Source of the DNA: Candidatus Saccharimonadales bacterium
GTDB taxonomy: Bacteria; Patescibacteriota; Saccharimonadia; Saccharimonadales; SZUA-47
Reading direction: 5' to 3'
Assembly (NCBI GenBank): GCA_038211855.1
Contig: JBBQVE010000003.1
Coordinates: 33,907-97,906 of the forward strand
Length of the DNA stretch: 64,000 nucleotides
Positions 3,125 through 42,174 of this stretch are shown in pieces. Below the pieces are notes generated by a model that ran no database searches, had not been told where the DNA came from, and worked only from the letters and a program-made list of their open reading frames with translations. The translations under genes were made by a program, and so were the position numbers. Each line of letters opens with the position of its first letter. Position 1 is the stretch's first letter.

Positions 3125-4977
3125 AATCAGTGCTCGTTACCACCAGCTGGGACGACGGCCATATCCTGGATATGCGCTTGGCGGCACTACTCAAAAAATA
3201 TGGCTTAAAAGGTACTTTTTATGTATCACCACACGACCATGAATTCGCGGCCGATAACTTGTTGAGTGATCAGCAAGTGACCACGCTCGCGAAGTCATTT
3301 GAAATTGGTGCTCATACCATGACACACCCGCGACTGACGCAGATATCTGACAAAAAAGTCGTTAAAGAATTAGCAGACTCCAAGCAGCATCTAGAACGGG
3401 TAACGGGCACGACAATTACCGCGTTCTGCTATCCGGGTGGTAACTATGCCGCAAAGCACATTCCGCTTATAAAAAAAGTGGGCTTTGCATACGCGCGAAC
3501 CACCAAACGACTCAGCCTGAAGAGCGGTCCAGCCTACGAGGCGAGGACAACGGTCAATACCTATAATCACTATCAAGATTTGTGGAAGATTTCTAAACTG
3601 GCTCGCTTTCAGCCTCGGAAAATTTATCAGCTTTTTCACTGGGAAGAACTAGCAAAGTTTATGTTTGATAAAGTCCAAAAAGAGGGTGGCATCTTTCATC
3701 TGTGGGGGCATTCTTGGGAAGTCGACGGGCATAATGATTGGGAAAAACTGGAAGCAGTCTTCGAATATATTTCCGGTAAGAAAGACACCTCCTATGTGAC
3801 AAATGGGGAACTGCCTGCGCTGGAGACGAAAAACTTATTGATGGTTGCGCCTTATTTTCCACCACACACCGGTGGTCAAGAATTCTATGCTTATAATAAT
3901 GCGCTCCAGTTACAAAAAAAGTTCGGCTGGAACGTGACGATCGCGACTTCCGGGGGCATGGGGTGGCGAGTCAAAAAGCGTGAGCAAAACGGTCTCACCG
4001 TCTACGAGCTACCGTACTGGCATAGACTGTCGAATACGCCCATCAATCCGCTCTGGTACTTCATGATCCGAAGACTAATCACATCACGCAACATTGATGT
4101 TTTAAATACGCATGCGCCGGTTGTGGGCATGGCTGAATGTGCCCAACTGGCGGCCGGACGAGTTCCAGTCGTTTTCACCTATCACATGTTGAGCATGAAA
4201 AAAGGCGAAAAACGATTCGACTGGATTATCTGGCTCTACGAAAAACTCGTGCTGCCCTTGAGTCTCAAAAAAGCTCACCACATCATTGTTTCGTCAGATC
4301 CAGTGCGTCAAACATTTCTTAAGAATGTGTTACATAAAAGTCAGACTATTAGCACCGGCGTTGATAGTGAGCGGTTCTATCCATGTTCTAAAAGACTCGC
4401 TCATACACCGACATTGCTCTTCAACGGAACACTGAATAAAACGGGCACACACAAAGGGCTTAGCGTGTTAATTGACGCCCTGCCGCTCATCATTAAAAAA
4501 GTACCAATGGTAGATGTTTTGATTATTGGAGCTGGCGATGGACATCAAGAATATCAACAGCAGGCTGACAAGCTTGGCGTTGGACGTCACTTGGTTTTTC
4601 TGGGTACGAGGTTCGACGAAGAGCTCGTGCAGGTGTACCAATCGGCGCATATATTTGTGCAGCCGAGCCTCAATGATAGCTACCCGATGGCGCTGGTTGA
4701 GGCGCTTGCGACTGGCATGGCCTGCGTTGCCACCAGTGTTGGTGCATTGCCGGCAATCGTTGAAGATGGCGTGAATGGGCTTATAGTGCCACCCGGTGAC
4801 ACAGTGGCTTTGGCAGAAAAACTTATCTATTTGTTTGAGCATCCTGCAGTTGCTCGTAAGTTCGGTGCGGCTGGTCGCCGGAAAGCTGAAGTATCAATGT
4901 CTTGGGACAACAAAGTGGCCGCCTTAGATGTGGCACTCCATGCGGCAATCGACGGTCGGAAGGGACGTGTGCGATGA
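3121..4977 (+). CDS. Fusion protein: NodB-type polysaccharide deacetylase (N) + GT4 glycosyltransferase (C)
   Basis: The N-terminal ~230 aa carry TSWDDG, HTMTHP and CYPGG (NodB homology motifs). The remainder has APYFPPHTGGQEFY ... PSLNDSYPMALVEALATGMACVAT (GT4). GTG 3121 overlaps the upstream TGA. Confidence 0.8.
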   Translation: MKSVLVTTSWDDGHILDMRLAALLKKYGLKGTFYVSPHDHEFAADNLLSDQQVTTLAKSFEIGAHTMTHPRLTQISDKKVVKELADSKQHLERVTGTTITAFCYPGGNYAAKHIPLIKKVGFAYARTTKRLSLKSGPAYEARTTVNTYNHYQDLWKISKLARFQPRKIYQLFHWEELAKFMFDKVQKEGGIFHLWGHSWEVDGHNDWEKLEAVFEYISGKKDTSYVTNGELPALETKNLLMVAPYFPPHTGGQEFYAYNNALQLQKKFGWNVTIATSGGMGWRVKKREQNGLTVYELPYWHRLSNTPINPLWYFMIRRLITSRNIDVLNTHAPVVGMAECAQLAAGRVPVVFTYHMLSMKKGEKRFDWIIWLYEKLVLPLSLKKAHHIIVSSDPVRQTFLKNVLHKSQTISTGVDSERFYPCSKRLAHTPTLLFNGTLNKTGTHKGLSVLIDALPLIIKKVPMVDVLIIGAGDGHQEYQQQADKLGVGRHLVFLGTRFDEELVQVYQSAHIFVQPSLNDSYPMALVEALATGMACVATSVGALPAIVEDGVNGLIVPPGDTVALAEKLIYLFEHPAVARKFGAAGRRKAEVSMSWDNKVAALDVALHAAIDGRKGRVR

Positions 4978-15238: not shown

Positions 15239-15499
15239 CTACTTCGACGTTGACTGATGAAGAATCGAGGCAGCTAGTGTTTGATATGGCAAACCTTCTT
15301 TTGCGGCACGAGCCTTGAGCTTGTAAACATCTCGTTCAGAGAGTCTAATGTTGATATTCATTGTTTTATTTAGAGAGTTTTTGGCTATTTTAACTGCTTC
15401 ACGCTTTACAGCTTCGACATGCTCAACAGATACAAACTCGCCAGTTTCAAAATCTTCGAGTATTTTCTGTTCTTCCTTATCTAGATCGTAATCTTTCAC
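15239..15499 (-). CDS. brnA: BrnA-like / CopG (RHH) antitoxin
   Basis: 86 aa. The C-terminal NINIRLSERDVYKLKARAAKEGLPYQTLAASILHQ is the typical RHH antitoxin signature. 4-nt overlap with the upstream toxin gene. Confidence 0.7.
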   Translation of the reverse strand: MKDYDLDKEEQKILEDFETGEFVSVEHVEAVKREAVKIAKNSLNKTMNINIRLSERDVYKLKARAAKEGLPYQTLAASILHQSTSK

Positions 15500-15777
15500 T
15501 GTGTTTCTCCTTTCAAATATTTTTTCGTGGCTCTTCGGCTTGGGATAATTGTCTTTAGAAATATTTTTTCGTCATCCTCAACAAACGGTACAAGGTATAC
15601 ATATTCGGCAATTTGTACAATGTACACTTTTTGCTTTGGATATTTAAGGTAATTGGGGTGGGTCTCAACACTAAGTAAACGACCATCATTAATCGCTACG
15701 AGTACATCCTCAAAACAGATTTCACGCTCAGTTAAAAGTTCAACGTTTTTTTGTTTATTCCAATCATAATACCTCAC
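15496..15777 (-). CDS. brnT: BrnT-like (DUF497) toxin
   Basis: 93 aa. YDWNKQKNVELLTEREICFEDV ... IFLKTIIPSRRATKKY fits the BrnT pattern (WD..K...N......FE...........SAR.A...E...Y). Toxin-first order as in brnTA. Confidence 0.65.
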   Translation of the reverse strand: MRYYDWNKQKNVELLTEREICFEDVLVAINDGRLLSVETHPNYLKYPKQKVYIVQIAEYVYLVPFVEDDEKIFLKTIIPSRRATKKYLKGETQ

Positions 15778-16039: not shown

Positions 16040-16168
16040 CTGGTGGGCTTTAATGGATTTCATTGGAATCAAGTATTGTCACAACTGTCCACTTTATATA
16101 CTACTTACAGCGATCTATTAAGTACACTTCTTAATGACACTACCTCAGTGTCATTGAATCAACGCTAG
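16040..16168 (+). repeat. Tail unit U-Ile-2 (att-like module)
   Basis: Starts with CTGGTGGGC (mimic of the tRNA-Ile2 3' end). The open frame reads LVGFNGFHWNQVLSQLSTLYTTYSDLLSTLLNDTTSVSLNQR*. Contains the 9-bp stem AATGACACT-acctc-AGTGTCATT. Confidence 0.6.
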
Positions 16169-16231
16169 CGCCATATTGAGCTACAATAGTGGCCATCGAT
16201 GCTTATGAAAACCCTAACTACTTAAATCTTA

Positions 16232-17158
16232 CTATTGGAAATAAGGAAAGCCCCACCACTCATTAGCATTACACGTAATCATATGTTTATCGAGTAGACC
16301 AATTTTCGACATCTCATCTTCGCTTAATTCAAAGTTTGTAATAGAAAAATTTTCCTTGATTCTCTCTGGGCTAGTAGCTTTAGGTATAGCTGGAGTTTCT
16401 CTTTGATATGCCCAACGCAGCGCAACTTGTGCGACAGTTTTCTTATGGGCATCAGCTATCTCGATCATAGTTTCATCTTTAAGAACCGGATTACCCGATG
16501 AACTTAGAGGAGAATAGGCTGTTACGACCACGCCTTGAGATTTGCAAAACTTTATCAGATCATTCTGAGCATGATAAGGGTGCACTTCTATTTGATTCAT
16601 AACTGGCTTCGTCTTGGCATAATTCAACAGATCAATTAGCATTGCCGCACTGTAATTCGCAACGCCTATAGACTTAGCAAGGTTCTTGCTAGCCAAGTTT
16701 TCCATTGCACGCCATGTTTCCTGTAGTGGTACGTGTGCAAAACGTACAAGACCGTTTTCACCAAGTGGCTCAAGATCGCCTCCATACTCAAATGCTACAG
16801 CCCAGTGCATTAGGTATAGATCAAGATATTCCACTTGCAAATCTTGTAGTGTCTTCGTGTGGGCTTCATAGACATGGTCTGGTGCATGATCTGTATTCCA
16901 AAGCTTACTGGTAATGAATAGCTCCTCGCGCGTTACCAGACCATCTGCAATCGCTTGATGTATACCTTCACCAACTTCCGTCTCGTTACCATATACAGAT
17001 GCACAATCTATGTGTCGGTAGCCAGTTTTTATCGCATCCACAATGGACTGTTTTGCAGTATTTTTTGATAAGTTCCAAGTTCCAAAACCGAGCATTGGCA
17101 CTATAGCGTTATTGCTGAGGGTAATTTTATCCATAGGATAATTATTCCATAAAACCAT
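16232..17158 (-). CDS. Aldo-keto reductase (AKR family, 2,5-diketo-D-gluconate reductase-like)
   Basis: LSNNAIVPMLGFGTWN...GYRHIDCASVYGNE...LFITSKLWN...LDLYLMHW...IPKATSPERIKENF are classic AKR motifs. The start may be ATG 17134 (MDKITLSNN...). Confidence 0.85.
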   Translation of the reverse strand: MVLWNNYPMDKITLSNNAIVPMLGFGTWNLSKNTAKQSIVDAIKTGYRHIDCASVYGNETEVGEGIHQAIADGLVTREELFITSKLWNTDHAPDHVYEAHTKTLQDLQVEYLDLYLMHWAVAFEYGGDLEPLGENGLVRFAHVPLQETWRAMENLASKNLAKSIGVANYSAAMLIDLLNYAKTKPVMNQIEVHPYHAQNDLIKFCKSQGVVVTAYSPLSSSGNPVLKDETMIEIADAHKKTVAQVALRWAYQRETPAIPKATSPERIKENFSITNFELSEDEMSKIGLLDKHMITCNANEWWGFPYFQ

Positions 17159-17327
17159 TAAGTTAAGTAGCCCCTAGTAGACGCTCTTAGTACTTTTAGA
17201 CGTTGTGCCGTTTTATGAAAATATATCAGCGCTAGCGAGCAGGGAAGAGTGTATTTGAACCACTTAACACCTTTTGCGAAAGGATCACGAAAATTTTTAC
17301 TTATGTGTAACAGATTCAAACCGCTTA

Positions 17328-17403
17328 TGGTGGGGGTGGATGGACTTGAACCATCGACCAAAGGATTATGAGTCCTCTGCTCTAACCACTGAGCTACACC
17401 CCC
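17328..17403 (-). tRNA. tRNA-Ile2 (anticodon CAU, lysidine-type), CCA encoded
   Basis: Reverse complement GGGGGTGTAGCTCAGTGGTTAGAGCAGAGGACTCATAATCCTTTGGTCGATGGTTCAAGTCCATCCACCCCCACCA folds as a 76-nt cloverleaf. It closely resembles my recollection of E. coli ileX. A Met identity cannot be excluded from sequence alone. Confidence 0.85.
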
Positions 17404-22985: not shown

Positions 22986-23060
22986 CGCGGGATAGAGCAG
23001 TGGCAGCTCGTGTGGCTCATAACCACAAGGTCGCAGGTTCGAGTCCTGCTCCCGCTACCA
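22986..23060 (+). tRNA. tRNA-Met (anticodon CAU), initiator-like, CCA encoded
   Basis: CGCGGGATAGAGCAGTGGCAGCTCGTGTGGCTCATAACCACAAGGTCGCAGGTTCGAGTCCTGCTCCCGCTACCA forms a 75-nt cloverleaf. The unpaired 1:72 position (C:U) and overall similarity to bacterial tRNA-fMet (CGCGGG...GCTCATAACC...CCCGCAACCA) suggest initiator identity. Confidence 0.85.
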
Positions 23061-23076
23061 AGTTTGAATAACAGAT

Positions 23077-23106
23077 AGAGATTGGTTCCAAAACCAGTCT
23101 CTTTTT
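23077..23106 (+). terminator. Hairpin terminator after tRNA-fMet (part of the repeated L module)
   Basis: AGAGATTGG-ttccaaaa-CCAGTCTCT + TTTT. The 34-nt block 23077-23110 is identical to 24562-24595. Confidence 0.6.
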
Positions 23107-23229
23107 GATTTGATAGTTAATTCACCTCTGTTATTTAAGTTCGAGTCCTGTTTGGTCTTTTTGCTCATGCTTGCATTAGACTCTATGCACGTTGCAAGAT
23201 ATATATAAGACTAAATTCGAGGAGAAGTT

Positions 23230-24423
23230 ATGCCAGAGCTAATGAGCCCAGAGACTCAGGAAGATTTTAAACGGACAATAGGTCGCGTTGAAGGGGTAAC
23301 CGGCTATGAAAGACCAGCAGCATTTGCTCTGGGATTAGCCACTATTGAGGGTGAGGGCGAAGACAAAAAAGTCATCGAAGTACAATACACCCGCAGAAAC
23401 TACGCAGAAAACTTTGGGACAGCTGCAGTATTGGCTGTAGCTACACAACAATGGACAGGCTTAGAGACAGGAGAATTTTTGCTGAGACCTCATCAATTAG
23501 ATACTGTGACTCGTTTGTTTAGGCCATTTTTCGAAAATGGTCTAGTCTTACCAGGACATGCTAATATCGACACACTGATGGCGATGAGAGATGTGCAAGT
23601 TGGCGGATTATTTCCTAAATCAGGTGCGGATAATATCTCAAACCCACGTGTACCAATCTTAGGTGTAATACGCAGCTGGGATGACGAACCAGTCAGTGTT
23701 GCCGACATCTTTCTAAGACTCTATGCACTCTCTGACCGGCACCGCTTGCCAAACACAGCAAATATTGTGCCTGGACGCGATTTTCCAAAGCTACCAAACA
23801 CAGTGATGAGCGAGTCACTTGGTACGTTTAGCGTTGACAGATGGAATGCAATGTCGGAAAGAATCGCCTTTAGGGGCTTATCAACTGCCGTTCGTGGATT
23901 GGATAAATTCCCACGTATGACAGACCATGTGGTGCCAACGGGTGTTAGAATTGCCGACCCAAGCAGAGTACGTCTCGGAGCGCATCTTGGTTCTGGTACG
24001 ACCGTAATGCATGAAGGCTTTGCTAACTTTAACGCTGGTACAGTAGGCGCAAGTATGGTTGAAGGTAGAATCAGCGCTGGCGTACTTGTAGGTGAAGGTT
24101 CCGACGTGGGCGGCGGTGCATCAATTATGGGCACTATGTCAGGCGGTGGTAAAGAAGTCATTAGTATAGGAGAAAAATGTCTCTTAGAGGCTAATAGCGG
24201 AATAGGAATATCATTAGGAGATAACTGTAGAGTCGAAGCAGGCACATATGTAAAGTCGACCACTAAGGTCAAACTACCAAACGGCGACTGGGTAAAAGCT
24301 GATAGACTGTCAGGCCAAGATAATATGATGCTACGCAGAAGTTCTGTCACTGGCGAAGTAGAACTGCTACCAAACGTAGGTACAGAATGGGGCGGTCTTA
24401 ACTCAGTGCTTCATACTAACTAG
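23230..24423 (+). CDS. dapD: 2,3,4,5-tetrahydropyridine-2,6-dicarboxylate N-succinyltransferase, long (Pseudomonas-type) form
   Basis: DKFPRMTDHVVPTGVRIADPSRVRLGAHLGSGTTVMHEGFANFNAGTVGASMVEGRISAGVLVGEGSDVGGGASIMGTMSGGGKEVISIGEKCLLEANSGIGISLGD is a hexapeptide-repeat domain. It is near-colinear with my recollection of long-form DapD. GAGGAG SD. Confidence 0.8.
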   Translation: MPELMSPETQEDFKRTIGRVEGVTGYERPAAFALGLATIEGEGEDKKVIEVQYTRRNYAENFGTAAVLAVATQQWTGLETGEFLLRPHQLDTVTRLFRPFFENGLVLPGHANIDTLMAMRDVQVGGLFPKSGADNISNPRVPILGVIRSWDDEPVSVADIFLRLYALSDRHRLPNTANIVPGRDFPKLPNTVMSESLGTFSVDRWNAMSERIAFRGLSTAVRGLDKFPRMTDHVVPTGVRIADPSRVRLGAHLGSGTTVMHEGFANFNAGTVGASMVEGRISAGVLVGEGSDVGGGASIMGTMSGGGKEVISIGEKCLLEANSGIGISLGDNCRVEAGTYVKSTTKVKLPNGDWVKADRLSGQDNMMLRRSSVTGEVELLPNVGTEWGGLNSVLHTN

Positions 24424-24435
24424 TGTTTTAAAGTT

Positions 24436-24546
24436 CTAGTGTCGTGCGGTAGAGTAAACAACTCCTGCTTGAACCCTATAAAGTTGTAACCATCGAACTA
24501 ACTCGCTAAAGATAAGGTTCCAATTCGAATGTACAAGGGCTACCAA
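24436..24546 (-). repeat. Tail unit U-fMet-1 (att-like module)
   Basis: On the minus strand, TTGGTAGCC (mimic of the tRNA CCA end) opens the frame LVALVHSNWNLIFSELVRWLQLYRVQAGVVYSTARH*. 19/36 aa identical to the unit at 26230-26340, with no indels. Confidence 0.6.
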
Positions 24547-24561
24547 GTGAAAATAAAAGAG

Positions 24562-24591
24562 AGAGATTGGTTCCAAAACCAGTCTCTTTTT
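24562..24591 (+). terminator. Second copy of the L-module hairpin
   Basis: Identical to 23077-23106. Confidence 0.55.
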
Positions 24592-24806
24592 GATTACAAC
24601 GGACTTCCGGGTATATCCCCAGTTCTAAGATTTTAATGAGAAACCTGGGCATCGAGACATGAAACAGTGTTGTTAGTAGGGAAACACTTTATGCACACGG
24701 AAGCCTTAAGTATAGACTAATTGTCAATTTTTCGCAGTAAGCTATGTTATATGATGACCGAATTATTTAGCATATATTGAGAGTACTTAATAATAAGAAA
24801 GCTGAA

Positions 24807-25181
24807 ATGCGAAGCATAGTTTTGAACAAGTCAAGAGTATCCACCGTTATCTCAAAAAGTATCCTTACTATATCTATTATTTTATCAATGATAGGAATCT
24901 CGGTTGTGGCATCACCTATGGCGAGTGCTTATTACGGCTCATCGGTAATGGCCGTTAGTGCACCGGGATGTGGGACGACCTGCCCGAACGGACCGGAATA
25001 CATAATCCCTCAATTCAAAAAAGTATACATGATCTGTTACAAAGACATGACATGGCGATATACCAATGGTCGGTGGTCCAATAGATGGTATCGGGTTATC
25101 CCTGATGGATGGGGCTTTGCTGTTTACACGCCGGCGCCTGCTGTGGCCAATCCAATGTCAGTTGGCTGGTGTAACTACTAG
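24807..25181 (+). CDS. Small secreted Cys/Trp/Tyr-rich hypothetical protein (124 aa)
   Basis: ORF 24777..25181; ATG 24807 taken as the start. Signal/anchor ILTISIILSMIGISVVASPMASA. The mature part carries 5 Cys. A strong terminator follows. Confidence 0.55.
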   Translation: MRSIVLNKSRVSTVISKSILTISIILSMIGISVVASPMASAYYGSSVMAVSAPGCGTTCPNGPEYIIPQFKKVYMICYKDMTWRYTNGRWSNRWYRVIPDGWGFAVYTPAPAVANPMSVGWCNY

Positions 25182-25196
25182 TCAATTTGCAGATAA

Positions 25197-25230
25197 ATAG
25201 AGATTCACCTGCCGTGAATCTCTATTTTTA
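25197..25230 (+). terminator. Rho-independent terminator
   Basis: ATAGAGATTCAC-ctgcc-GTGAATCTCTAT + TTTTT. Confidence 0.7.
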
Positions 25231-25244
25231 TGACACCTATTTTT

Positions 25245-25369
25245 GCAGGTTCGAGTCTTGCTGCCTACTCATTAACAGGTGATTCCTTACGTACTTCATT
25301 AACTATCTTCCACATAGTTATCAGTTCTTGTTTCACTTGGTTCCATTTCGGCTCTGGCGTGGCTACCAA
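25245..25369 (-). repeat. Tail unit U-fMet-2 plus adjacent tRNA T-arm/acceptor copy
   Basis: 25245-25268 GCAGGTTCGAGTCTTGCTGCCTAC copies the tRNA-fMet 3' part. The minus-strand frame from TTGGTAGCC (25369) reads LVATPEPKWNQVKQELITMWKIVNEVRKESPVNE*, 17/34 identical to the unit at 42032-42136. Confidence 0.6.
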
Positions 25370-25484
25370 GTTTGAATATCAGCAAGAGATTGGCCTCAAA
25401 ACTAAACTCTATTATATTTGGTGCAAAAACTGACCTCTGTTTAGAAGATTTCAGTCTTACTCGGTGATCTGATAATATCGATGT

Positions 25485-26225
25485 ATGGAAATACTAGGAC
25501 TGCCCAGCTTTAGAATTGCAGCCAATATAAAAGGTAGTGAAGATAGTAATAAGGTCGCAATCTTAATGCCAGGTCGATTGGATACTAAAGACTATGCCAA
25601 CTTCCTTAGTCATTTAAATTTTCTTTCAATTCAGGGCTTCTATACTTTGGCGATTGACCCACCTGGTACGTGGGATAGTTCTGGTGACTTAAGTATCTTT
25701 ACAACCACCAATTACTTGAAAGTTATTCATGAAATTATCGACTACTTTGGCAATAGACCCACTCTTTTACTTGGCCATAGCCGTGGTGGAGCTACTGCTA
25801 TGCTTGCCTCGTGCAATCCAGCAGTATCTGGAGTTGTAGTAGTTAACTCAGCATTAGGGTCACCTACACCACCAGAGCTAAGTGATATTGAAGATGGAAC
25901 TCTACCTGAATACCGTGATTTACCACCTGGCAATATACGAACCGAGAAAAAGAAACGCTTCAACTTACCCATGGACTATTTTGAAGATGGTGTCAAACAC
26001 GACCCGGAAGGTACATTAGCCAGATTTAAGGGGCCTAAACTTATCGTACATGCAGATAAAGACGAGTTTGAAACCTTAGAGCGGGTTAGTGAAGTGTTCG
26101 ACAGGCTTTCTGAACCTAAAACATTTCTAAAGATTAATAGTACGCACGATTACCGACTTTACCCCGAGGCTATTAAAGCAGTTGAAGATGGACTAGGAAA
26201 ATTTCTAAAAGACTATTTTTACTAA
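25485..26225 (+). CDS. Alpha/beta-fold serine hydrolase
   Basis: 246 aa. Nucleophile elbow GHSRGG, late Asp (HADKDE) and His (STHDY). Confidence 0.75.
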   Translation: MEILGLPSFRIAANIKGSEDSNKVAILMPGRLDTKDYANFLSHLNFLSIQGFYTLAIDPPGTWDSSGDLSIFTTTNYLKVIHEIIDYFGNRPTLLLGHSRGGATAMLASCNPAVSGVVVVNSALGSPTPPELSDIEDGTLPEYRDLPPGNIRTEKKKRFNLPMDYFEDGVKHDPEGTLARFKGPKLIVHADKDEFETLERVSEVFDRLSEPKTFLKINSTHDYRLYPEAIKAVEDGLGKFLKDYFY

Positions 26226-26229
26226 GGTT

Positions 26230-26340
26230 CTAGTCCGCTGCGGTAGAGTAAGTAATAGGCATCACGCCACTAATAACCCCCAGCCAGCGGACTAACTCTC
26301 TACTGATATCGTTCCAATGTGAATGTACTTGGGCTACCAA
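26230..26340 (-). repeat. Tail unit U-fMet-3 (att-like module, last of the array)
   Basis: The minus-strand frame from TTGGTAGCC reads LVAQVHSHWNDISRELVRWLGVISGVMPITYSTAAD*. Its last codons (TACCGCAGCGGACTAGAACC) mimic the tRNA acceptor/T-arm. Confidence 0.6.
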
Positions 26341-37526: not shown

Positions 37527-37603
37527 GGCGATGTAGCTCAGTTGGTTAGAGCACAGGACTCATAAGCCTGGGGTCACAAGTTCAAATCTTGTCATCGCTA
37601 CCA
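37527..37603 (+). tRNA. tRNA-Met (anticodon CAU), elongator-like, CCA encoded
   Basis: GGCGATGTAGCTCAGTTGGTTAGAGCACAGGACTCATAAGCCTGGGGTCACAAGTTCAAATCTTGTCATCGCTACCA forms a 77-nt cloverleaf. It closely resembles my recollection of E. coli elongator tRNA-Met. TGGTATAAT -10 at 37508-37516. Confidence 0.9.
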
Positions 37604-39101
37604 AATCAGAATTTATAGCCGATTCGTCGGCTATTTTCTTTAATAACAGATAAGAGTCTGTCAATTCAACGGTTCCAAAACCGGTTTCAAGGTCATACGG
37701 TACTCCAGACGGAAAAAGTAACTTCTGAATAGCTTGTCTACTTCTTGTGCTAGCTCGGTTCCAAAAAATATCTGGTGTTTTAATAAAACTCATAGCATCG
37801 TCGACTATTTGTTCTTTCTCTTTTACGTAGCTGTCCATTTCTGTTTTTTCTTGTTCTAGTAGTGCTATCTTATCGTCAATGCGTCTTAGTTGTTCGTCTC
37901 TATCATCTTCCGTAATCTTGTCTGCAATAAACTTATTATTAGTCGAGAATCTCAGCTCTTTATGCACTTCAATATCTCGATTCACTTGTGCCGCTGTTTC
38001 GAGCGCTTTACCGTATTCATCATTCCACTCCCTTAAAACCACTATCTTAAATAGTTTGGCAATCCCTTGATTTATCGGGCGTTTACTTTCCAGTAGTTCT
38101 CTAAAATGTTTGTGGACCATATCCGCATCTTGGCTAGATTTCTTGTGAGTTACAGATTTACGACAGGTTTTTCTTGGACAGTGATACATGGAGTAGTGGC
38201 CACCGTTACCATGAGGCGTGCTGGCAGAAAGGGGTAGGCTGCAGTTCGTACATAGCAGAGTGCCTCTTAATGGATAAAAGTCATCACCTTTAATAACAAA
38301 TACTCGTTTGTCTTTATTGATTATTTCTATATTCTTATATATCGTTTCCTCGCCTACTAAAGGTGTATGTCTACCTCTAATTATCTTGGTACTTAGTTTA
38401 TTTTTGGTATAACCAGCATAGAATAAGTTCACTAAAATTATCTTCATAGCATCATGGGCTTTTGGTTTTCCAGATTTTGTCTTTATACCATTATCAAATG
38501 CCATTCGAGAAATATCGGCTACACTGTAGGTTCCTTTTGAAAACTCAGTAAGTAATACTCGAATCTTGTCTGCATAATCAGGGTCGGGTACAACCGACCT
38601 GTTGACCTTTTTGTAGCCGATTGTAGCGCTGTGCGGCCATTCTCCTTGCTCTACACGCATTCTCATGCCTGTAAGGCTTCTAATAGCTCGTATTTCGTTA
38701 TCAAACTGTGCTGCAGCAGCTAGAATAGCCTCCAAGAACCTACCGACAGGGTCATCATCTATTGGCTCAGTGACTGAAATGATTTTAATGTCATATTTTG
38801 CTAAGGCAACCTTGATTCCGTAGTAGTCACCAAGATTTCTTGCTAGTCTGTCAATTTTCCAGATATAAAGTACATCAATTTTGCCTTTGTTATCTCTAAC
38901 AAATTGAAGCATACGCTGTAGCTCTGTGCGGTCAATAAACTTGGCCGATTCGCCTTCTTCCCTGAAAATGTGCGAATCAGGAACGGGTACTTCCTGCTTA
39001 CGGGCGAAGAGCTTACACTCTTTTTCTTGATTATCAAGACTAAGGCGTTTTTCGGCCTGTTCTTTTGTGGATACTCTTGTATAGATAATTCCTAGACCCA
39101 T
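37560..39101 (-). CDS. Large serine recombinase (integrase); last 14 codons are encoded by the antisense of tRNA-Met
   Basis: GIIYTRVSTKEQ (catalytic Ser), DRLARN, recombinase domain, Cys-rich zinc ribbon (CTNCSLPL...YHCPRKTC) and a coiled-coil region. The ORF ends ...SDLVAMTRFELVTPGL*, with the stop (TGA) in the tRNA anticodon loop. TATAAT lies 6 nt upstream of ATG 39101. Confidence 0.9.
   Translation of the reverse strand: MGLGIIYTRVSTKEQAEKRLSLDNQEKECKLFARKQEVPVPDSHIFREEGESAKFIDRTELQRMLQFVRDNKGKIDVLYIWKIDRLARNLGDYYGIKVALAKYDIKIISVTEPIDDDPVGRFLEAILAAAAQFDNEIRAIRSLTGMRMRVEQGEWPHSATIGYKKVNRSVVPDPDYADKIRVLLTEFSKGTYSVADISRMAFDNGIKTKSGKPKAHDAMKIILVNLFYAGYTKNKLSTKIIRGRHTPLVGEETIYKNIEIINKDKRVFVIKGDDFYPLRGTLLCTNCSLPLSASTPHGNGGHYSMYHCPRKTCRKSVTHKKSSQDADMVHKHFRELLESKRPINQGIAKLFKIVVLREWNDEYGKALETAAQVNRDIEVHKELRFSTNNKFIADKITEDDRDEQLRRIDDKIALLEQEKTEMDSYVKEKEQIVDDAMSFIKTPDIFWNRASTRSRQAIQKLLFPSGVPYDLETGFGTVELTDSYLLLKKIADESAINSDLVAMTRFELVTPGL
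37615..37641 (+). terminator. tRNA-Met terminator hairpin located inside the recombinase coding region
   Basis: ATAGCCGA-ttcg-TCGGCTAT + TTTCTTT, 12 nt after the CCA end. On the minus strand it encodes ...KKIADESAIN.... Confidence 0.5.
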
Positions 39102-39147
39102 GGAACCATTATACGACTAATATTTACAGGTTATAAGTGTTGATATT

Positions 39148-39300
39148 TTATTTTGGAACTGTTTGTTGTACGAAGTCTTTTGCAATTACTTCTAGGAGAG
39201 AAATAATATCCGCGATTTGCGCATCGGAAAACTCCTTATACGGTTTGCCGAGAAGCTTTCGTGCCTCTTTAATTGTAATTATTGGCGAATCTTGAGACAC
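39148..39300 (-). CDS. Candidate 50-aa protein between recombinase and DUF5681-like gene
   Basis: GTG start. Product VSQDSPIITIKEARKLLGKPYKEFSDAQIADIISLLEVIAKDFVQQTVPK looks protein-like. However, there is no SD and it starts right after a terminator hairpin (39303-39330). Confidence 0.3.
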   Translation of the reverse strand: MSQDSPIITIKEARKLLGKPYKEFSDAQIADIISLLEVIAKDFVQQTVPK

Positions 39301-39386
39301 AAAAGCCCTTCACAAAGTTAGAAGGGCTCTAGATACAAAACGGCCTATTAAGCCTATTGTATACTATCTAGACATAATACTAAAGC

Positions 39387-39710
39387 TTATTTTGTAGTAG
39401 TGTATCTTCTATGTACAATGATAAGTTTCTTATCCTCTTCCTCTCTAACCTGACCACTGTTGCCATAGCCGTGTCTTATGAGTAGTTCAGTAGCTCTTAA
39501 ATCTCCACGAATCGCCCTAACTATCATTCCCTTAATAATTGCTTCTATTGGCGTACCCAATGTTTCTTTTCCAAGAAGTGTATAACCAATTTCTACATCT
39601 TCGAGGAATTCTTTGATGTAACTGGAAACATGCTTAGAGCCTTTAGGTTTGCTGCCGCGTCGTATATCATATCCTTTTTTGAAAGGTTTAAGGTTTTGTT
39701 GATTTGCCAT
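39387..39710 (-). CDS. DUF5681-like phage/plasmid-associated protein
   Basis: The N-terminal NLKPFKKGYDIRRGSKPKGSK resembles the N..L.PFKKG....GRPKG motif of DUF5681. The rest is unassigned. Confidence 0.5.
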   Translation of the reverse strand: MANQQNLKPFKKGYDIRRGSKPKGSKHVSSYIKEFLEDVEIGYTLLGKETLGTPIEAIIKGMIVRAIRGDLRATELLIRHGYGNSGQVREEEDKKLIIVHRRYTTTK

Positions 39711-39828
39711 AATCTCACTGTATTCTCGCAGTAATTATTAATAAAAAAGCAACAAAGTGCTTGGCTAAGTTACCTAGGTAAACTATAGCACTCCTTGTCC
39801 AAGTCATCCGAAGGAGGTATGCTTAATT

Positions 39829-39934
39829 TGTCTTAAGCTAGCAGTAGTTTTCTAATTGCACATCAGTGCGGTTTTGCCATTAAATGGCATCCGTACAAAA
39901 GCAGTTAGGCAAAACCTACTGTTGGCTTAAGACA
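39829..39934. repeat. Nested inverted repeats in the divergent intergenic region of the element
   Basis: Outer arms TGTCTTAAGCTAGCAGTAG (39829-39847) / CTACTGTTGGCTTAAGACA (39916-39934), 17/19 complementary. Inner arms GGTTTTGCC (39870-78) / GGCAAAACC (39908-16). Preceded by AAGGAGG and a 5-codon mini-ORF (39819-39836). Confidence 0.5.
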
Positions 39935-39970
39935 CCTAGTACGGGTGCCTTTTTAGTTTAGGAGCATTTT

Positions 39971-40627
39971 ATGGAAAAACTGTTCGACGTAGAAGAACTT
40001 CATAAGACTTATCGTAAGAGAAAAATTAAAAAAGTTCTTCTTACTTTAGCTGCAGTTTCGCTTTTAATCGTAGTATCAAATAAGTATGTTCCAAGATTTA
40101 GTAATACAAGGTCTTCTTTAATTACTCCTACACAGACATCTGCCGAACCTGTATCTGTATTAGGTGAGAATAATACTAGAGTTAGTGGTTCTACATACAA
40201 TCCAGGACTTTCAAAAGACGAAGCCTTGGCAAAGCAGCAAGCCGCTCAGGCGCAACAACAACTTGATGCTGCAAACCAAAATCTAAAAAATGTATATCAG
40301 AATATTGGAAATACGGATTCGTATACTCCAACTACCGACTACTCATCAACTACTAGCAATAACACCTACAGTCCTCCAGGGGTAACAAATACACCGAAAC
40401 CAGTTTGCACGCCAAACCCACAGTTAGCTGGTTTAAGCGCTTCAATAGTTCAGGCTCAAGGTCAAATATCGGCTTTTAATGATAAGCTCAACACTCCTGG
40501 CGATATGTATGGCTACAATGCCTCTGGCTATGCTAATTATCGTGCGCAAGAAGGGCAGAGGTTACAGTCACAACTCAGCCAGCTACAAAGTCAATACAAC
40601 CAGCTAAAGGCACAGAGTAACTGTTAA
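39971..40627 (+). CDS. Membrane-anchored Q/N/S/T-rich hypothetical protein
   Basis: GGAG SD. TM LLTLAAVSLLIVV. Low-complexity coiled-coil-like Q-rich segments. Confidence 0.5.
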   Translation: MEKLFDVEELHKTYRKRKIKKVLLTLAAVSLLIVVSNKYVPRFSNTRSSLITPTQTSAEPVSVLGENNTRVSGSTYNPGLSKDEALAKQQAAQAQQQLDAANQNLKNVYQNIGNTDSYTPTTDYSSTTSNNTYSPPGVTNTPKPVCTPNPQLAGLSASIVQAQGQISAFNDKLNTPGDMYGYNASGYANYRAQEGQRLQSQLSQLQSQYNQLKAQSNC

Positions 40628-40710
40628 CCGTAAGTATCAAAATTACAATTTATTATATGGGCTAATAGCAAAAGTATGACGTATTAAATCTCCTAATGTA
40701 CTGAAGAAAT

Positions 40711-41019
40711 CTACTTAGCAGGAATTAGTGCAAAAGAGTCTGATGCTACCTTAAGCCCACTCTCTTTAATATAGTCTAGTTTCTCTTTAGCAGGCTTTTC
40801 TCTCAAGTTAATAGGCAGTCGAGAATTCAAATAGTAGAAAAGTTCATCACTTTCTGCGGTTTTAGAGTTGTTCGCTAGTGGAATAAAGCCGACCTGCTTC
40901 CAATAATTTGTAGGAATATTATCCGCTAATTCAAAAACAAACTTACCATTAAACACGACCGTTCCAATGGTCATATTTAATAATTCATCTTTTAAAATAA
41001 ATGTTACTGGCTTGCTCAC
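40711..41019 (-). CDS. HipS-like protein (resembles HipA N-terminal subdomain), encoded downstream of the kinase
   Basis: 102 aa. GTG start 3 nt after the kinase stop with GAGGGG SD. The segments ...IGTVVFNGKFVFE..., ...LFYYLNSRLP... and ...ASDSFALIPAK parallel my recollection of the HipA N-domain (vGeL...F.Y / fF.NLLP / DsvGAvtLIP). Inference. Confidence 0.5.
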   Translation of the reverse strand: MSKPVTFILKDELLNMTIGTVVFNGKFVFELADNIPTNYWKQVGFIPLANNSKTAESDELFYYLNSRLPINLREKPAKEKLDYIKESGLKVASDSFALIPAK

Positions 41020-41022
41020 GGT

Positions 41023-41985
41023 CTACCCCTCATAGATGCTTCTTAGTCTAGTGTAACGCATTATTAGGGACTTATATAGGAGTTTTCTTCGCCTTGTATC
41101 ATATTCTAAAATCTCCAAGCTAGGCATTTTAATCACTAAACCTGCGAGTTCCAGCATATCCATGTCTTTAACTCTTTTAAGGCTCTTCTTGAATCTTCTG
41201 CCCCAAGATGAGTTAGATTTTAAATGCTGTTCAATTAGTTCAAACATATTTGTTTTCTCTCTCTTTGAATTAAGGATAAATCCGTACTTACTGTTTTCAA
41301 CGTATCTCTTAAGTCTCTCTTCATCGTTCGTCATATTATCTATATCAGCATCACTTAACTCAAACATCAGACTGCTTCCATGGTCAAACAAAGGGGTAAA
41401 ATAACGTAAAGAAACTAACCTCTGTCGGTCAACTAAAATCTGCTGTCTATATTTTTGATAGGAGCAAATACCCCAGTTTTCGTGGTGTCTATCCATATTA
41501 CCTATCAGTGCATCAAATACGACCATATCTGCATAACTTTGCAGCAGGTCATCTGCAGCGTAGTACTTACCCTTTATTTTTTCTTCTATAGCTTCAAGTC
41601 TTAGTGGTTCAGATGGTGTTTCAACGATAGCTGCACCATAGGTTGTTTCTACCTTTTTAGGGAATATATTTCTAGCAAAGCTGCCCACAGGCTTCCAATT
41701 TCTTGGCAATATTCCTGGGTAACGGCTTCGCAAGACACTCTCTAGCCTTTTGGGCGTGGTTTTGATTGTTACTAACTGTGCATTCAATCCCATCAATTCT
41801 GCGATGTGTGACGCCAAGCACTCAGCCCAAACCTCGCGAGGTGTATGTGTGTACGTTTTGAAGAAAAAGATTTGTTTCTTATCTTTATGATAAAACGTAA
41901 GCCGAGGCCTACTACCGCCAACAACTTCAGCATGAACCGTACTATATCGATTCATATCGAGTTCGTTGACTGTAAAGTGTTTCAT
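41023..41985 (-). CDS. HipA-family serine/threonine kinase lacking the N-terminal subdomain (HipT-like)
   Basis: VVFDALIGNMDRHHENWG (catalytic loop, compare IGATDGHAKNFS), TPLFDHGSS (DxG-like) and GGSRPRL (Gly-rich loop). Confidence 0.75.
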   Translation of the reverse strand: MKHFTVNELDMNRYSTVHAEVVGGSRPRLTFYHKDKKQIFFFKTYTHTPREVWAECLASHIAELMGLNAQLVTIKTTPKRLESVLRSRYPGILPRNWKPVGSFARNIFPKKVETTYGAAIVETPSEPLRLEAIEEKIKGKYYAADDLLQSYADMVVFDALIGNMDRHHENWGICSYQKYRQQILVDRQRLVSLRYFTPLFDHGSSLMFELSDADIDNMTNDEERLKRYVENSKYGFILNSKREKTNMFELIEQHLKSNSSWGRRFKKSLKRVKDMDMLELAGLVIKMPSLEILEYDTRRRKLLYKSLIMRYTRLRSIYEG

Positions 41986-42031
41986 ATCCTACTAACAGTA
42001 TAGTCTAAGGCTATAGTTCAAAGCCTTCCGC

Positions 42032-42136
42032 TCACACTTTAACAGTAGTTTCTTCCCTTACTGTATTAACTATCTGCCACATGGCTATCAGCTCTCGCTT
42101 TATTTGGTTCCAATTCGTTCCTATCACGCCTACCAT
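42032..42136 (-). repeat. Tail unit U-Met-1 (right end of the integrative element; predicted alternative recombinase C-terminus)
   Basis: The minus-strand frame from ATGGTAGGC reads MVGVIGTNWNQIKRELIAMWQIVNTVREETTVKV*. It is in the same frame relative to TGGTA as the recombinase ...SDLVA. Confidence 0.6.
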
Positions 42137-42138
42137 AT

Positions 42139-42170
42139 AAAAAGCACCTGCTTAGACACAGGTGCTTTTT
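42139..42170. terminator. Bidirectional terminator
   Basis: AAAAAGCACCTG-8 nt-CAGGTGCTTTTT. It lies directly after the CCTACCA core and directly after the stop of 42175..42726. Confidence 0.7.
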
Positions 42171-42174
42171 ATTT

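Follow-up and report, generated by a model that had tools for sequence, protein, structure and literature searches.

The tRNA-Met locus and the block beside it

Within the window, the whole 64,000-nucleotide stretch of DNA analyzed here, a tRNA-Met gene is followed by a block (37600-42150) with a GC content of 0.34-0.44, compared with 0.46-0.50 in its flanks. The features recognized at this locus are as follows.

37527-37603, plus strand: tRNA-Met gene, anticodon CAT (ARAGORN and sequence)
37598-37603: attL core CTACCA, tRNA positions 71-76 (sequence)
37560-39101, minus strand: large serine recombinase (LSR) gene, integrated isoform, 513 aa (ORF; Pfam Resolvase and Recombinase)
37560-37604, minus strand: 14 tRNA-derived tail codons and stop, replacing the native tail (sequence, ORF)
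37615-37641, plus strand: element-borne intrinsic terminator (terminator scan)
39148-39300, minus strand: conserved 50-aa ORF directly upstream of the LSR gene (conservation in relatives)
39387-39710, minus strand: 107-aa ORF, weak DUF5681 similarity (Pfam E 5e-4, under the curated cut-off)
39829-39934: inverted repeat, 23 nt, 87% complementary, 60-nt spacer (repeat in sequence)
39971-40627, plus strand: 218-aa ORF, N-terminal hydrophobic segment, Q/S/T-rich (ORF)
40711-41985, minus strand: candidate two-gene anti-phage cargo (PADLOC, Pfam)
42030-42136, minus strand: detached 3'-terminal piece of the LSR gene, 34 codons and stop (translation)
42107-42135, plus strand: P' arm of attP (sequence, box spacing)
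42130-42135: attR core CTACCA (sequence)
42137-42172, plus strand: original tRNA terminator, B' arm side of attB (14-bp perfect stem, then T-run)

The only long ORF at the tRNA-Met junction, ending in ...AINSDLVAMTRFELVTPGL*, matches the Pfam Resolvase domain (E 3.8e-29) as well as the Recombinase domain. Specifically, residues 1-499 are element-encoded and residues 500-513 (LVAMTRFELVTPGL) are read antisense to the tRNA; the L codon TTG begins at 37604, one base beyond the tRNA, and the gene stops at a TGA complementary to t37560-c-a37562, corresponding to U33-C34-A35 of the anticodon loop. At the other end of the block, translation of 42030-42136 on the minus strand gives MVGVIGTNWNQIKRELIAMWQIVNTVREETTVKV*, with TGGTA in the same phase as in the LSR gene, yielding the detached tail peptide (M/L)VGVIGTNWNQIKRELIAMWQIVNTVREETTVKV*. 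An earlier note on this DNA, prepared without database searches, had described an LSR ORF running antisense into tRNA-Met, a final 14 codons and stop supplied by the tRNA, a core repeated at the far end of the AT-rich block, a 34-codon tail behind that core in the LSR phase, and a terminator directly after it, all of which are borne out by the coordinates given above.

The two junctions, attL (...CGCTACCA|AATCAG) and attR (...ACGCCTACCA|TATAAA), have in common the core CTACCA, and since this is their sole identical stretch, the crossover dinucleotide lies within it. We consider it highly probable that 37604-42135 constitutes a 4532-bp integrative element situated at the CCA end of the tRNA-Met gene. 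Integration leaves the tRNA gene intact, its last ~24 nt forming the B arm of attB, and displaces the original terminator by 4.5 kb. Neither an empty attB nor a circular copy of exactly this element was recovered, and flank synteny is not kept in the 11 related genomes found.

With regard to the remaining genes, the HipA-like kinase of the candidate cargo (41023-41985) matches PDC-M03A (PADLOC E 5.5e-35) as well as Pfam HipA_C and HipA_2, the latter two under curated cut-offs, and its 102-aa partner (40711-41019) weakly matches PDC-M03B (PADLOC E 8.8e-4). PHROG matches to the 107-aa ORF are weak, and the 218-aa ORF is without a family match in Pfam, PHROG, or PADLOC. The 23-nt inverted repeat lies within the element's largest intergenic region. 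The 50-aa ORF, with invariant residues E-A-R..L-G...S-D, is also found in the circular units described below, in an integrated relative (L009), and in a distant sister clade (L105); it may act as a directionality factor or regulator, a function that is inferred.

Two C-termini of one recombinase

Joining the element ends at the core yields a protein of 533 aa, and attP sits inside the LSR gene, 34 codons ahead of its stop. Among the 120 closest LSR homologues, 99 end in tRNA-antisense tails and five in helix-type tails; the integrated form accounts for 99 of the ~111 that are full-length. Four of the helix-type proteins (P0007, 533 aa; P0008, 532 aa; P0016 and P0025, 534 aa each) carry the predicted tail (…LVG…NWNQIKRELITMWQIVNE…), ending in ...LVG(M/S)xESNWNQIKRELITMWQIVNEIRKESPVTV, and in the fifth, P0024 (534 aa), the tail is of a more divergent WN type and begins ...GLGWNTLHES. 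All five are encoded on contigs of 3.5-6.4 kb, and for each of the four predicted-tail proteins at least one contig displays a terminal k-mer overlap (units of 4499, 6325, 3487, and 4124 bp), which indicates that the contig is a circle. The 4499-bp unit was found in four assemblies or samples with permuted start points, terminal overlap was absent from L006 (5310 bp), the second contig encoding P0016, and a tRNA was absent from all circles checked (L001, L005, L007, and L008). Tandem integrated copies are an alternative source of circular-looking contigs, in which case the attP junction would hold but the free circle would be unproven.

The attP layout of the circles is that of the left side of the window's attL joined to the right side of its attR, in the order hairpin, AATTCTNNT, TTGGTA, GGC, and then TCGAATTGGAACC. 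When the window LSR is compared with the circle-encoded LSRs, homology breaks at the L-V codons and resumes at 42136, placing the crossover within TGGTAG/CTACCA, and the detached tail is 65-68% identical to the circle-encoded tails. The same comparisons bear on the predictions of the earlier note. The 533-aa chimera it constructed has natural counterparts of 532-534 aa with the predicted tail, the full-length homologues ending in W-N-x-[IV]...E-L...W that it called for exist (P0007, P0008, P0016, and P0025), the attP junction is physically present in relatives' contigs with terminal overlaps (four units), and the break and resumption of homology uphold its right boundary. Its central proposal, that the LSR C-terminus depends on integration state, is likewise supported by the two classes of homologue tail, four of the five helix-type proteins being encoded on circles. 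The LSR ends in a conserved 32-residue helix when the element is circular and in ~12-14 tRNA-read residues when it is integrated.

For the last ~25 residues of the 533-aa LSR, an amphipathic helix (NWNQIKRELIAMWQIVN...) is predicted. The fold of homologue P0007 is that of a full LSR and matches the LSR-DNA complexes 9dxd, 9iu2, and 4kis. AlphaFold2 models the tail as a helix (residues 506-528) following a disordered linker (483-505); because pLDDT is only ~45-60 and no confident docking is obtained, there is no structural hint of tail contacts. All of the eight tail copies compared have 34 codons and the same stop position, and their differences are distributed 236/115/339 over the first, second, and third codon positions (3 > 1 > 2), a substitution pattern characteristic of coding sequence. 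Distant relatives (31-34% LSR identity) keep [KS]WN[QR][IL]xxEIxxFxxxF, and the motif is also kept in a sister clade (~30% LSR identity) and at 52-62% GC. Some members of this clade are labelled Acidobacteria by their sources. Most of its tail-bearing LSRs lie on long chromosomal contigs and read into the tail relics of cassette arrays, so the presence of a tail does not always denote an excised element.

These data also bear on the proposition, which we regard as improbable, that attP only overlaps the gene end, that constraints at the DNA level (the binding site of the LSR, or signals serving the genes downstream) maintain the tail, and that the protein works alike with either C-terminus. 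The most conserved residues, W-N, do fall on the P' arm's TGGAAC box, the modelled tail is of low confidence behind its disordered linker, and the tRNA-coded replacement tails vary freely with the target tRNA. However, conservation extends ~75 nt past a 25-bp half-site, third-position changes prevail over those at the second position, none of the eight copies departs from the common frame length and stop position, and the amphipathic pattern W-N-x-[IL]-x-x-E-[IL]-x-x-[FM]-x-x-[ILF] persists across clades that differ widely in GC and are only ~30% identical in their LSRs.

Attachment site, terminator, and a proposed cycle

The crossover falls within the terminal NACCA of the tRNA. In eight further integrated relatives, the block of identity between attL and attR is always TGGT(A/G) plus one to four more bases. 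The tRNA genes targeted by the family are Met(cat), Glu(ctc/ttc), Arg(gcg), and Ala(ggc), in every case running antisense to the 3' end of the LSR gene. Considered in isolation, the window could be explained by an ORF that runs on into the flank, a fortuitous 6-bp repeat, and a true element end located elsewhere; neither the repeat nor the frame is remarkable in AT-rich DNA, the probability of finding no stop in a 32-codon frame at 38% GC being ~0.11 by our own estimate. It is the comparative evidence that raises the case above chance, as the predicted chimera length and tail sequence occur in natural circle-encoded LSRs and the same junction logic recurs at >20 independent loci and four tRNA species. 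Coincidence, to which we assign a vanishingly small likelihood, is effectively refuted by the circle-encoded tails, the junction comparison, and the identity blocks.

Within the P' arm, GTTCCA (42107-42112) mimics the tRNA T-loop box GTTCAA. The distance from the start of the box to the end of ACCA is 24 nt in the tRNA (attB) versus 29 nt in attP, as counted without exception in three tRNAs and five P' arms of the window. In attP, the motif bound by the LSR zinc-ribbon domain (ZD) is known to lie 5 bp farther from the core than it does in attB (PMC3783163). The shift of exactly 5 bp in the tail-side arm matches this published spacing rule, the difference by which LSR zinc-ribbon domains tell attP from attB. 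On the opposite strand of the P' arm, TGGAAC encodes the conserved W-N, and a DNA-binding site alone can explain part of the tail conservation at these codons.

The terminator at 37615-37641 (ATAGCCGA-TTCG-TCGGCTAT, then a T-run) belongs to the P arm of attP and lies within the LSR coding sequence, encoding KKIADESAI on the opposite strand. Of 19 relatives, 17 have the same hairpin in this register, with a stem covariation score of 0.347 versus 0.147 in shuffles (0/500 as high) and lower scores in all slid controls. As judged from sequence, this hairpin putatively substitutes for the displaced terminator of the tRNA, and attP overall would imitate a 'tRNA 3' end plus terminator'. LSR-less cassette arrays adjoin the two other CAT tRNAs of the window, with three relics beside tRNA-fMet and a single one beside the third tRNA-Met, and further arrays are found in L009, L022, and L107.

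The reading that we favor, and in which as a whole we have considerable confidence, is that of an element family, found in genomes bearing the label Saccharibacteria/Patescibacteria, whose LSR directs insertion into the ACCA terminus of tRNA genes. In the circular form, a continuous LSR gene would produce the 533-aa enzyme; attP x attB recombination would then strand the helix-coding piece (42030-42136) at the element's opposite end, the integrated gene would read ~12 antisense-tRNA codons and stop in the anticodon loop, and the hairpin in the LSR-side attP arm would take over tRNA termination. We infer that the tail-bearing enzyme from the circle is the integration-proficient form, that tail loss and head-on tRNA transcription into the gene 3' end may alter or lower the activity of the integrated LSR, making the reaction dependent on integration state, and that the 50-aa ORF may aid the reverse reaction. 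What is demonstrated comprises the two junctions, the occurrence of circular attP in relatives, the tail's conservation and coding signature, and hairpin covariation; how the tail swap affects enzyme activity is inferred only, there being no activity data for the two isoforms.

It is possible, though in our estimation rather unlikely, that the tail is instead essential for any LSR activity, such that integration inactivates the enzyme, integrated copies no longer excise on their own and decay in place, and the circles are the propagating, plasmid-like form. The predominance of integrated homologues, the frequency of LSR-less relics in the window and elsewhere, and the assembly of tRNA-free circles from several samples would all be in keeping with such a dead end, yet ~100 independent homologues show integrated LSR genes to be intact and well conserved, detached attR tails keep an open 34-codon frame and stop, as expected if elements cycle, and the circles are without a recognizable replication gene.

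Relation to known integration systems

To our knowledge, the targets of phage-type LSRs are protein-coding genes or intergenic sites and not tRNA ends, and we know of no case of a host-gene terminator embedded in an integrase coding sequence. The recombinase described here nonetheless resembles the phage-type LSRs (Listeria A118/LI, phiC31, Bxb1, and TP901-1) in its catalytic, recombinase, and zinc-ribbon domains, the latter with an inserted coiled coil, in the short identity of attP and attB (6-9 bp around the crossover), and in a zinc-ribbon-type box that attP places 5 bp further out than attB does (PMC3783163). In contrast, the attP of phage-type LSRs is normally outside the integrase gene (in phage R4, which was checked, the annotated core is 27 bp upstream of the integrase start codon) and their C-terminus is the same in both states.

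SSV-type archaeal tyrosine integrases also carry attP inside int, the gene being partitioned by integration into a tRNA gene, and employ tyrosine chemistry and a long core (~44 bp) identical to the tRNA. In both systems the recombinase gene holds its own attP and is split on tRNA-gene integration; however, the SSV split leaves a large non-functional int fragment, whereas here only the last 34 codons detach and the remaining enzyme is intact. The element likewise resembles tRNA-targeting islands of the Islander/TIGER class in its position on the 3' side of a tRNA gene, its adjacent integrase gene, and its defence-type cargo. Those islands use tyrosine integrases almost exclusively and restore a displaced stretch of tens of bases from the tRNA 3' end, while here a serine integrase is used, the overlap comprises only the terminal 6-9 bases, and the terminator is what gets replaced. 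For a serine integrase, targeting of a t(m)RNA gene 'has not been reported previously' according to PMC7192596.

A parallel for the switch itself comes from the integration-dependent immunity of mycobacteriophages of the BPs/Brujita type, in which attP lies in coding sequence near the 3' end of a gene, phage and prophage products differ at the C-terminus, and integration sets the switch (Broussard et al. 2013 via PMC8092301). The gene split in those phages is the repressor gene and the integrase a tyrosine recombinase, whereas here the serine integrase gene is itself split; moreover, integration there removes an ssrA-like degradation tag from the viral form (PMC8092301), while what is lost here is a conserved helix ending ...SPVTV that does not resemble such a tag. 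Newly found in the present analysis are the crossover in NACCA, the copy of the T-loop box, the covarying terminator within the gene, and the LSR-less cassette arrays.

Boundaries of the element and its recombinase gene

The element inserted at the CCA end of tRNA-Met (37604-42135, 4532 bp) is distinguished by base composition, with a GC content of 0.34-0.44 over about 37600-42150 as compared to 0.46-0.50 outside. The only direct repeat at its ends is the common core CTACCA, the left junction reading ...CGCTACCA/AATCAG and the right junction ...ACGCCTACCA/TATAAA.

Features of the element and its target tRNA gene
37527-37603, plus strand: tRNA-Met (anticodon CAT), identified by ARAGORN
37560-39101, minus strand: large serine recombinase (LSR) ORF, 513 aa, C-terminus ...AINSDLVAMTRFELVTPGL; the sole long ORF beside tRNA-Met
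37615-37634, tRNA strand: hairpin plus T-run (terminator), from the terminator scan
42137-42172: strong terminator with a 14-bp stem, directly after the right core, from the terminator scan
directly upstream of the LSR gene: conserved 50-aa ORF, kept even in a distant sister clade
within the element: ORF with weak similarity to DUF5681
within the element: 218-aa ORF without a family match

The earlier note held that the recombinase frame crosses the element/tRNA junction and stops in the anticodon loop, and that a second core at 42128-42136 has an in-phase 34-codon frame behind it; both claims are borne out, the first by ARAGORN, the ORF and the sequence, the second by sequence and translation. 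Specifically, the L codon of the LVAM stretch begins at 37604, one base past tRNA-Met, and the TGA stop is the complement of 37560-37562, corresponding to U33-C34-A35 of the tRNA-Met anticodon loop. Minus-strand translation of 42030-42136 yields MVGVIGTNWNQIKRELIAMWQIVNTVREETTVKV followed by a stop, with TGGTA in a phase identical to that of the LSR. In AT-rich DNA, a 6-bp repeat together with an open frame of 32 codons carries no significance by itself (the chance of the tail frame staying open is, by our estimate, ~0.11), and the case rests on comparison with relatives.

The ORF carries a catalytic domain matching Pfam PF00239 (Resolvase, E 3.8e-29) as well as a PF07508 Recombinase domain over the cut-off, and is therefore an LSR. 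In an alignment of 116 LSR sequences, Y7, R9, V10 and S11 are invariant, as are the zinc ribbon cysteines C287 and C308, with C284 and C313 nearly so. Sequence matches in the PDB are to TP901-1 and resolvase catalytic domains, and an AlphaFold2 model of the homologue P0007, built from the same alignment, displays a confident LSR fold (mean pLDDT 83.8) with long helices at 362-441, for which Foldseek matched the full-length LSR-DNA complexes 9dxd, 9dxh, 9iu2, 9rah and 4kis (E 1e-18 to 1e-10). By fold and domains, the window recombinase is a bona fide LSR; that it catalyzes recombination of attP (the circular-form junction) with attB (the empty tRNA site), and that the reverse reaction needs a directionality factor, is inferred, there being no activity data. 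The conserved 50-aa ORF is a possible directionality factor, and only a candidate.

As cargo, the element carries a two-gene cassette with matches to PDC-M03, a candidate defence system in PADLOC (HipA-like kinase, E 5.5e-35; partner, E 8.8e-4), and the cargo of relatives includes other defence-type genes, such as AbiU2 HEPN and DUF2326. The largest intergenic region, between the DUF5681-like and 218-aa ORFs, holds an inverted repeat (39829-39934; 23 nt, 87% complementary, 60-nt spacer) that could serve as an origin or a regulatory site, or correspond to a small RNA. A PHROG scan of nine proteins from the element and circles recognised neither replication nor virion genes and gave no structural-protein match, and within 2.9 million viral contigs the LSR family returned only two distant matches (28-32% identity); the element is therefore not called a prophage. 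The predicted attB junction, obtained by joining the window flanks, is ...TTGTCATCGCTACCATATAAAAAGCACCTG.... A 145-aa flank protein led to 11 related loci, seven of them labelled Saccharibacteria, Saccharimonadales or Patescibacteria group, none of which has tRNA-Met downstream in the window arrangement, so that the comparison yielded no empty attB.

Recombinase C-termini in integrated and circular relatives

A search of 5.8 billion proteins identified 1210 relatives at E <= 1e-10, and the best 120 were classified by C-terminus. For 99 of these 120, L, M or V plus V is followed by a peptide antisense to a tRNA T-arm (e.g., ...LVAASGLEPLTSGL, ...LVAATGIEPVTLGL and ...LVTSRGIEPRLPG), the rest comprising nine fragments, seven other endings and five helix-type tails; one of the seven, P0063, has a tRNA-antisense tail when judged by eye. 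Four of the five helix-type tails are close to that predicted for the window: P0007 (533 aa, ending ...NSHLVGMVESNWNQIKRELITMWQIVNEIRKESPVTV) and, with similar C-termini, P0008 (532 aa), P0016 (534 aa) and P0025 (534 aa). The predicted window chimera, at 533 aa, is of the same length as P0007, and the fifth protein, P0024 (534 aa), diverges more in its tail, ...GLGWNTLHESIVELDRK.... Contigs of 3.5-6.4 kb encode all five; tRNA-tailed forms often lie on contigs of 20 kb-1 Mb.

Two further kinds of ending were observed. Where the target tRNA offers no in-frame anticodon-loop stop, as for tRNA-Glu(ctc), the LSR frame continues through most of the tRNA, which adds 30-45 residues to the integrated form (P0012; locus L023 at about 4233-4317; locus L044 at about 4622-4697); the length of the replacement tail is entirely determined by the target tRNA. 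A minority of close homologues have their C-termini just beyond the globular part (...KKLENPGRT, ...NSTLVGSK) and lack both kinds of tail, tRNA and helix (P0026, P0032 at 499 aa, P0029, P0056 and P0069; loci L025, L026 and L033), and may reflect non-tRNA integration sites or decayed junctions.

Four contigs, each from a different assembly, encode P0007 and have terminal k-mer overlaps of 141, 141, 55 and 30 nt; all four reduce to one 4499-bp unit in which the gene occupies four different positions, and they are circular permutations of one molecule. The contigs of P0016, P0008 and P0025 close into units of 6325, 3487 and 4124 bp, respectively, and a second P0016 contig (L006) is without terminal overlap. 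Evidence for circles covers the contigs of these four proteins, that of P0024 having been left out, and no tRNA was found in the four circles tested (L001, L005, L007 and L008). Tandem integrated copies would likewise assemble as "circles", the junction being physically present in both cases.

Within the circles, the LSR gene runs unbroken through ...hairpin-AATTCTNNT-TTGGTA-GGC...TCGAATTGGAACC..., and joining the left side of the window's attL to the right side of its attR at TTGGTA gives this same layout, base for base in the conserved features (predicted attP junction, ...CCTATCACGCCTACCAAATCAGAATTTATAGCC...). The window LSR is homologous to the circle LSRs up to the L-V codons and again from 42136 onwards, which places the crossover inside TGGTAG (CTACCA). 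Two predictions of the earlier note are thereby met in relatives: full-length homologues of 532-534 aa with a W-N...E-L...W tail exist, as does an attP junction of the predicted layout, documented by terminal overlaps and permuted starts. Its proposal that the C-terminus depends on integration state is, as a structural interpretation, supported by these independent natural attP forms. Together, these data show that the LSR gene spans attP, that a conserved helix ends the protein encoded by the free or junction form, and that integration replaces this helix with tRNA-coded residues.

The tail itself was compared across eight copies, of which four come from circles, two from the integrated locus L009 and two from the window. 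Every copy comprises 34 codons with the stop at an identical codon, and pairwise differences number 236, 115 and 339 at first, second and third codon positions, respectively, a pattern that bears the signature of selection at the protein level. Public data even annotate the detached tails found at the far ends of integrated elements as hypothetical proteins of 34-71 aa (P0121-P0132), and in many integrated loci the detached tail lies upstream of the LSR in the same orientation. A protein search using the tail only recovered 12 short orphan ORFs at attR ends and nothing else, adding no further tail-bearing LSRs; these orphan ORFs serve as evidence that detached tails stay open.

A metagenome scan and further protein search reached a sister clade (~30% identical, 52-62% GC), four listed members of which are source-labelled Bryobacteraceae or Acidobacteriales. 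Among 120 sister-clade proteins, 108 end ...G-V-x-L-x-G-x-x-W-N-[QR]-[IL]-x-x-E-I-x-x-F-x-x-[IL]-F..., and a few switch to tRNA-antisense peptides at that same G-V. The amphipathic pattern thus outlasts large changes in codon usage. In the model of P0007 the tail forms a helix (506-528) after a disordered linker, with a pLDDT of about 45-60 and no reliable docking, and the tail ends (...ESPVTV, ...TTVKV, ...TPVAV) bear no resemblance to an ssrA-like tag.

Target sites, the embedded terminator and cassettes lacking a recombinase

In eight further integrated elements, the block of identity between attL and attR consists of TGGT(A/G) plus 1-4 bases (6-9 bp in total), which on the tRNA strand is N72-A73-C74-C75-A76, sometimes with a few neighbours. 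Targets include tRNA-Met(cat), tRNA-Glu(ctc/ttc), tRNA-Arg(gcg) and tRNA-Ala(ggc), with the LSR running antisense into the tRNA every time; the tRNA body is wholly host-derived, and no long displaced tRNA fragment is present. The central dinucleotide can be localised no finer than the 5-6 shared bases.

Read on the tRNA strand, attB consists of ..GTTCAAATCTTGTCATCGCTACCA joined to TATAAAAAGCACCTG...terminator, and attP of ..GTTCCAATTCGTTCCTATCACGCCTACCA joined to AATCAGAATTTATAGCCGATTCGTCGGCTATTTTCTTT, the attP architecture being an inference from sequence. Each of the window's three CAT tRNAs has a GTTC(A/G)A T-loop box that starts 24 nt from the ACCA end, and in all five of the window's P'-type (tail-side) arms a GTTCCA box (ATTCCA in one relic) starts 29 nt from it, a register shared by the circles. 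The structure of the LI integrase bound to attP led to the proposal that a 5-bp outward shift of the zinc-ribbon-domain (ZD) motif in attP discriminates attP from attB (PMC3783163), and the two offsets agree exactly with this rule. It is suggested that the zinc-ribbon domain reads the T-loop box and that attP copies the box 5 bp further out. On the coding strand GTTCCA reads TGG-AAC, the conserved W-N of the tail, such that the start of the tail doubles as an inferred binding site and as protein. Inspection by eye revealed no convincing inverted-repeat symmetry between the P (LSR-side) and P' arms.

The hairpin at 37615-37634 lies within LSR coding sequence, where it encodes KKIADESAI. A 7-9-bp stem at the same register is present in 17 of 19 relatives with differing stem sequences (GCCGA, GCCTC, GGCGG, GCACC, GACGGAC, CGCCC and others), and covariation is 0.347 as compared to 0.147 in shuffles, with 0/500 shuffles as high and every slid control lower. 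The element displaces the native terminator of tRNA-Met by 4.5 kb, and the conserved, covarying hairpin indicates that it supplies a substitute.

Three tandem cassettes lacking an LSR lie downstream of tRNA-fMet (22986-23060), the tRNA and the array together spanning window positions 22986-26340.

Cassettes downstream of tRNA-fMet
23061-24546: cassette 1, hexapeptide/THDPS-type acyltransferase
24547-25369: cassette 2, 134-aa ORF
25370-26340: cassette 3, alpha/beta hydrolase

Each is flanked by a P-type arm, composed of a terminator hairpin (AGAGATTGGTTCCAAAACCAGTCTCT plus T-run) and AACAGATA, a relic of the LSR's SYLL codons, and by a P'-type arm ending GCTACCA, a tail relic with the GTTCCA box 29 nt from the ACCA end; the P arm of the third cassette is degenerate. 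A native-looking terminator follows the last cassette junction only. The array looks like integron-like accretion by a serine integrase, and the terminator directly after tRNA-fMet, mentioned in the earlier note, is probably an element-derived P arm. At the third CAT tRNA (17328-17403, minus strand; unit 16040-17403), a P'-type relic (...GATTCCAATGAAATCCATTAAAGCCCACCA) lies ~1.3 kb away, sharing with the tRNA end the core CCCACCA; between them is a single aldo/keto reductase gene (16232-17158), and this unit is another LSR-less cassette. Thus none of the three CAT-anticodon tRNAs in the window is free of elements or relics belonging to the family. Just past this cassette, in a low-GC stretch (0.35-0.40), is a BrnT-like toxin ORF (15496-15777; Pfam E 2e-6, under the curated cut-off).

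Extra tails were also observed in other loci. In the sister-clade locus L107 (11501-14404, on a 1.54-Mb contig) a tail-bearing LSR is followed by two near-identical tail copies 1.3-1.5 kb apart, each with a second TGGAAC box 124 nt further on, and no tRNA lies within 10 kb; L083 (10498 and 13033) and L094 (10504 and 12187) hold one extra copy each. The LSRs of these three loci run into tail relics of cassette arrays, not into tRNA. Two relics lie upstream of one LSR in L009 (3982-4083, 5909-6007) and L022 (4942-5010, 5948-6049), which indicates tandem or nested elements, and the host-side flank of the outer L009 relic resembles a P-arm hairpin from a different element type.

The abundance of LSR-less relics supports a one-way trap, in which the tail-less enzyme is dead and integration irreversible; integrated LSR genes, however, are intact, as are the detached tails, and this explanation appears doubtful. 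That the exchange of C-termini is a neutral by-product seems improbable.

The C-terminal exchange and known systems

A functional difference between the two isoforms is inferred. In the view favoured here, the tail-bearing circle enzyme would be the integration form, and after integration the enzyme would be altered or dampened by loss of the tail, combined with convergent tRNA transcription that enters the 3' end of the LSR gene and proceeds as far as the embedded terminator. A broader proposal, advanced only tentatively, is that the integrase encodes its own directionality: the tail-bearing isoform would integrate, the tail-less isoform, perhaps with the 50-aa partner, could (or could not) reverse the reaction, and rearrangement of the DNA would flip the state of the enzyme with no need for a separately regulated directionality factor. 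By the same attP logic, the integron-like, LSR-less cassette arrays at tRNA 3' ends would also have arisen, and a resident LSR could mobilise them in trans.

Current understanding attributes the directionality of serine integrases to coiled-coil contacts together with a separate directionality factor, and a natural family whose C-terminus is rewritten by integration offers a simple, testable alternative that couples enzyme state to DNA state. The family additionally shows that a serine integrase is able to target tRNA genes, and since the T-loop target box is nearly universal, these enzymes are of possible interest as integration tools. In Saccharibacteria and other Patescibacteria, genomes are tiny and few mobile elements have been described; the 3.5-9 kb elements and cassette arrays are an apparent route for gaining defence and metabolic genes. 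In annotation terms, the "GIEPVT/GLEPLT" C-termini carried by hundreds of recombinases in databases belong to the same gene as the 34-aa "hypothetical proteins" at the opposite element ends, each being one of its two halves.

In LSRs, attP and attB generally share only a few bases around the central dinucleotide, and the ZD box of attP lies 5 bp further out; judged from sequence alone, the window element conforms to both. Classical tRNA islands, in contrast, employ a tyrosine integrase and a long direct repeat of the tRNA 3' segment, whereas here CTACCA alone is repeated and the arm at the far end mimics a T-arm at a 5-bp offset instead of copying the tRNA. A 2020 survey described t(m)RNA gene use by a serine integrase as previously unreported, with 14 candidate cases only (PMC7192596), and a large LSR survey is without any mention of tRNA (PMC10083194). 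Within the literature covered, which was incomplete, no LSR family with specificity for tRNA ends is described.

SSV-type integrases are tyrosine recombinases that contain their own attP and are split into non-functional parts. The window LSR gene is also partitioned, but encodes a serine recombinase that keeps 499 of 533 residues. Phage R4 was rejected as a precedent for an in-gene attP, its core lying 27 bp upstream of the int start codon and not at the 3' end. The literature covered, which was incomplete and leaves absence unproven, describes no LSR whose 3' coding region contains attP. The window element combines a serine integrase, an in-gene attP, targeting of tRNA CCA ends by inferred T-arm mimicry and an embedded replacement terminator.

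The nearest functional analogy is the integration-dependent immunity of mycobacteriophages, in which attP lies within the repressor gene and a C-terminal degradation tag is removed on integration by a tyrosine integrase (PMC8092301). In this Broussard-type switch, as in the window LSR, attP is situated in the 3' part of an ORF and the C-termini of the free and integrated forms differ; there, however, the split gene is an immunity repressor and the integrase a tyrosine recombinase, whereas in the window element the split gene is the serine recombinase itself.
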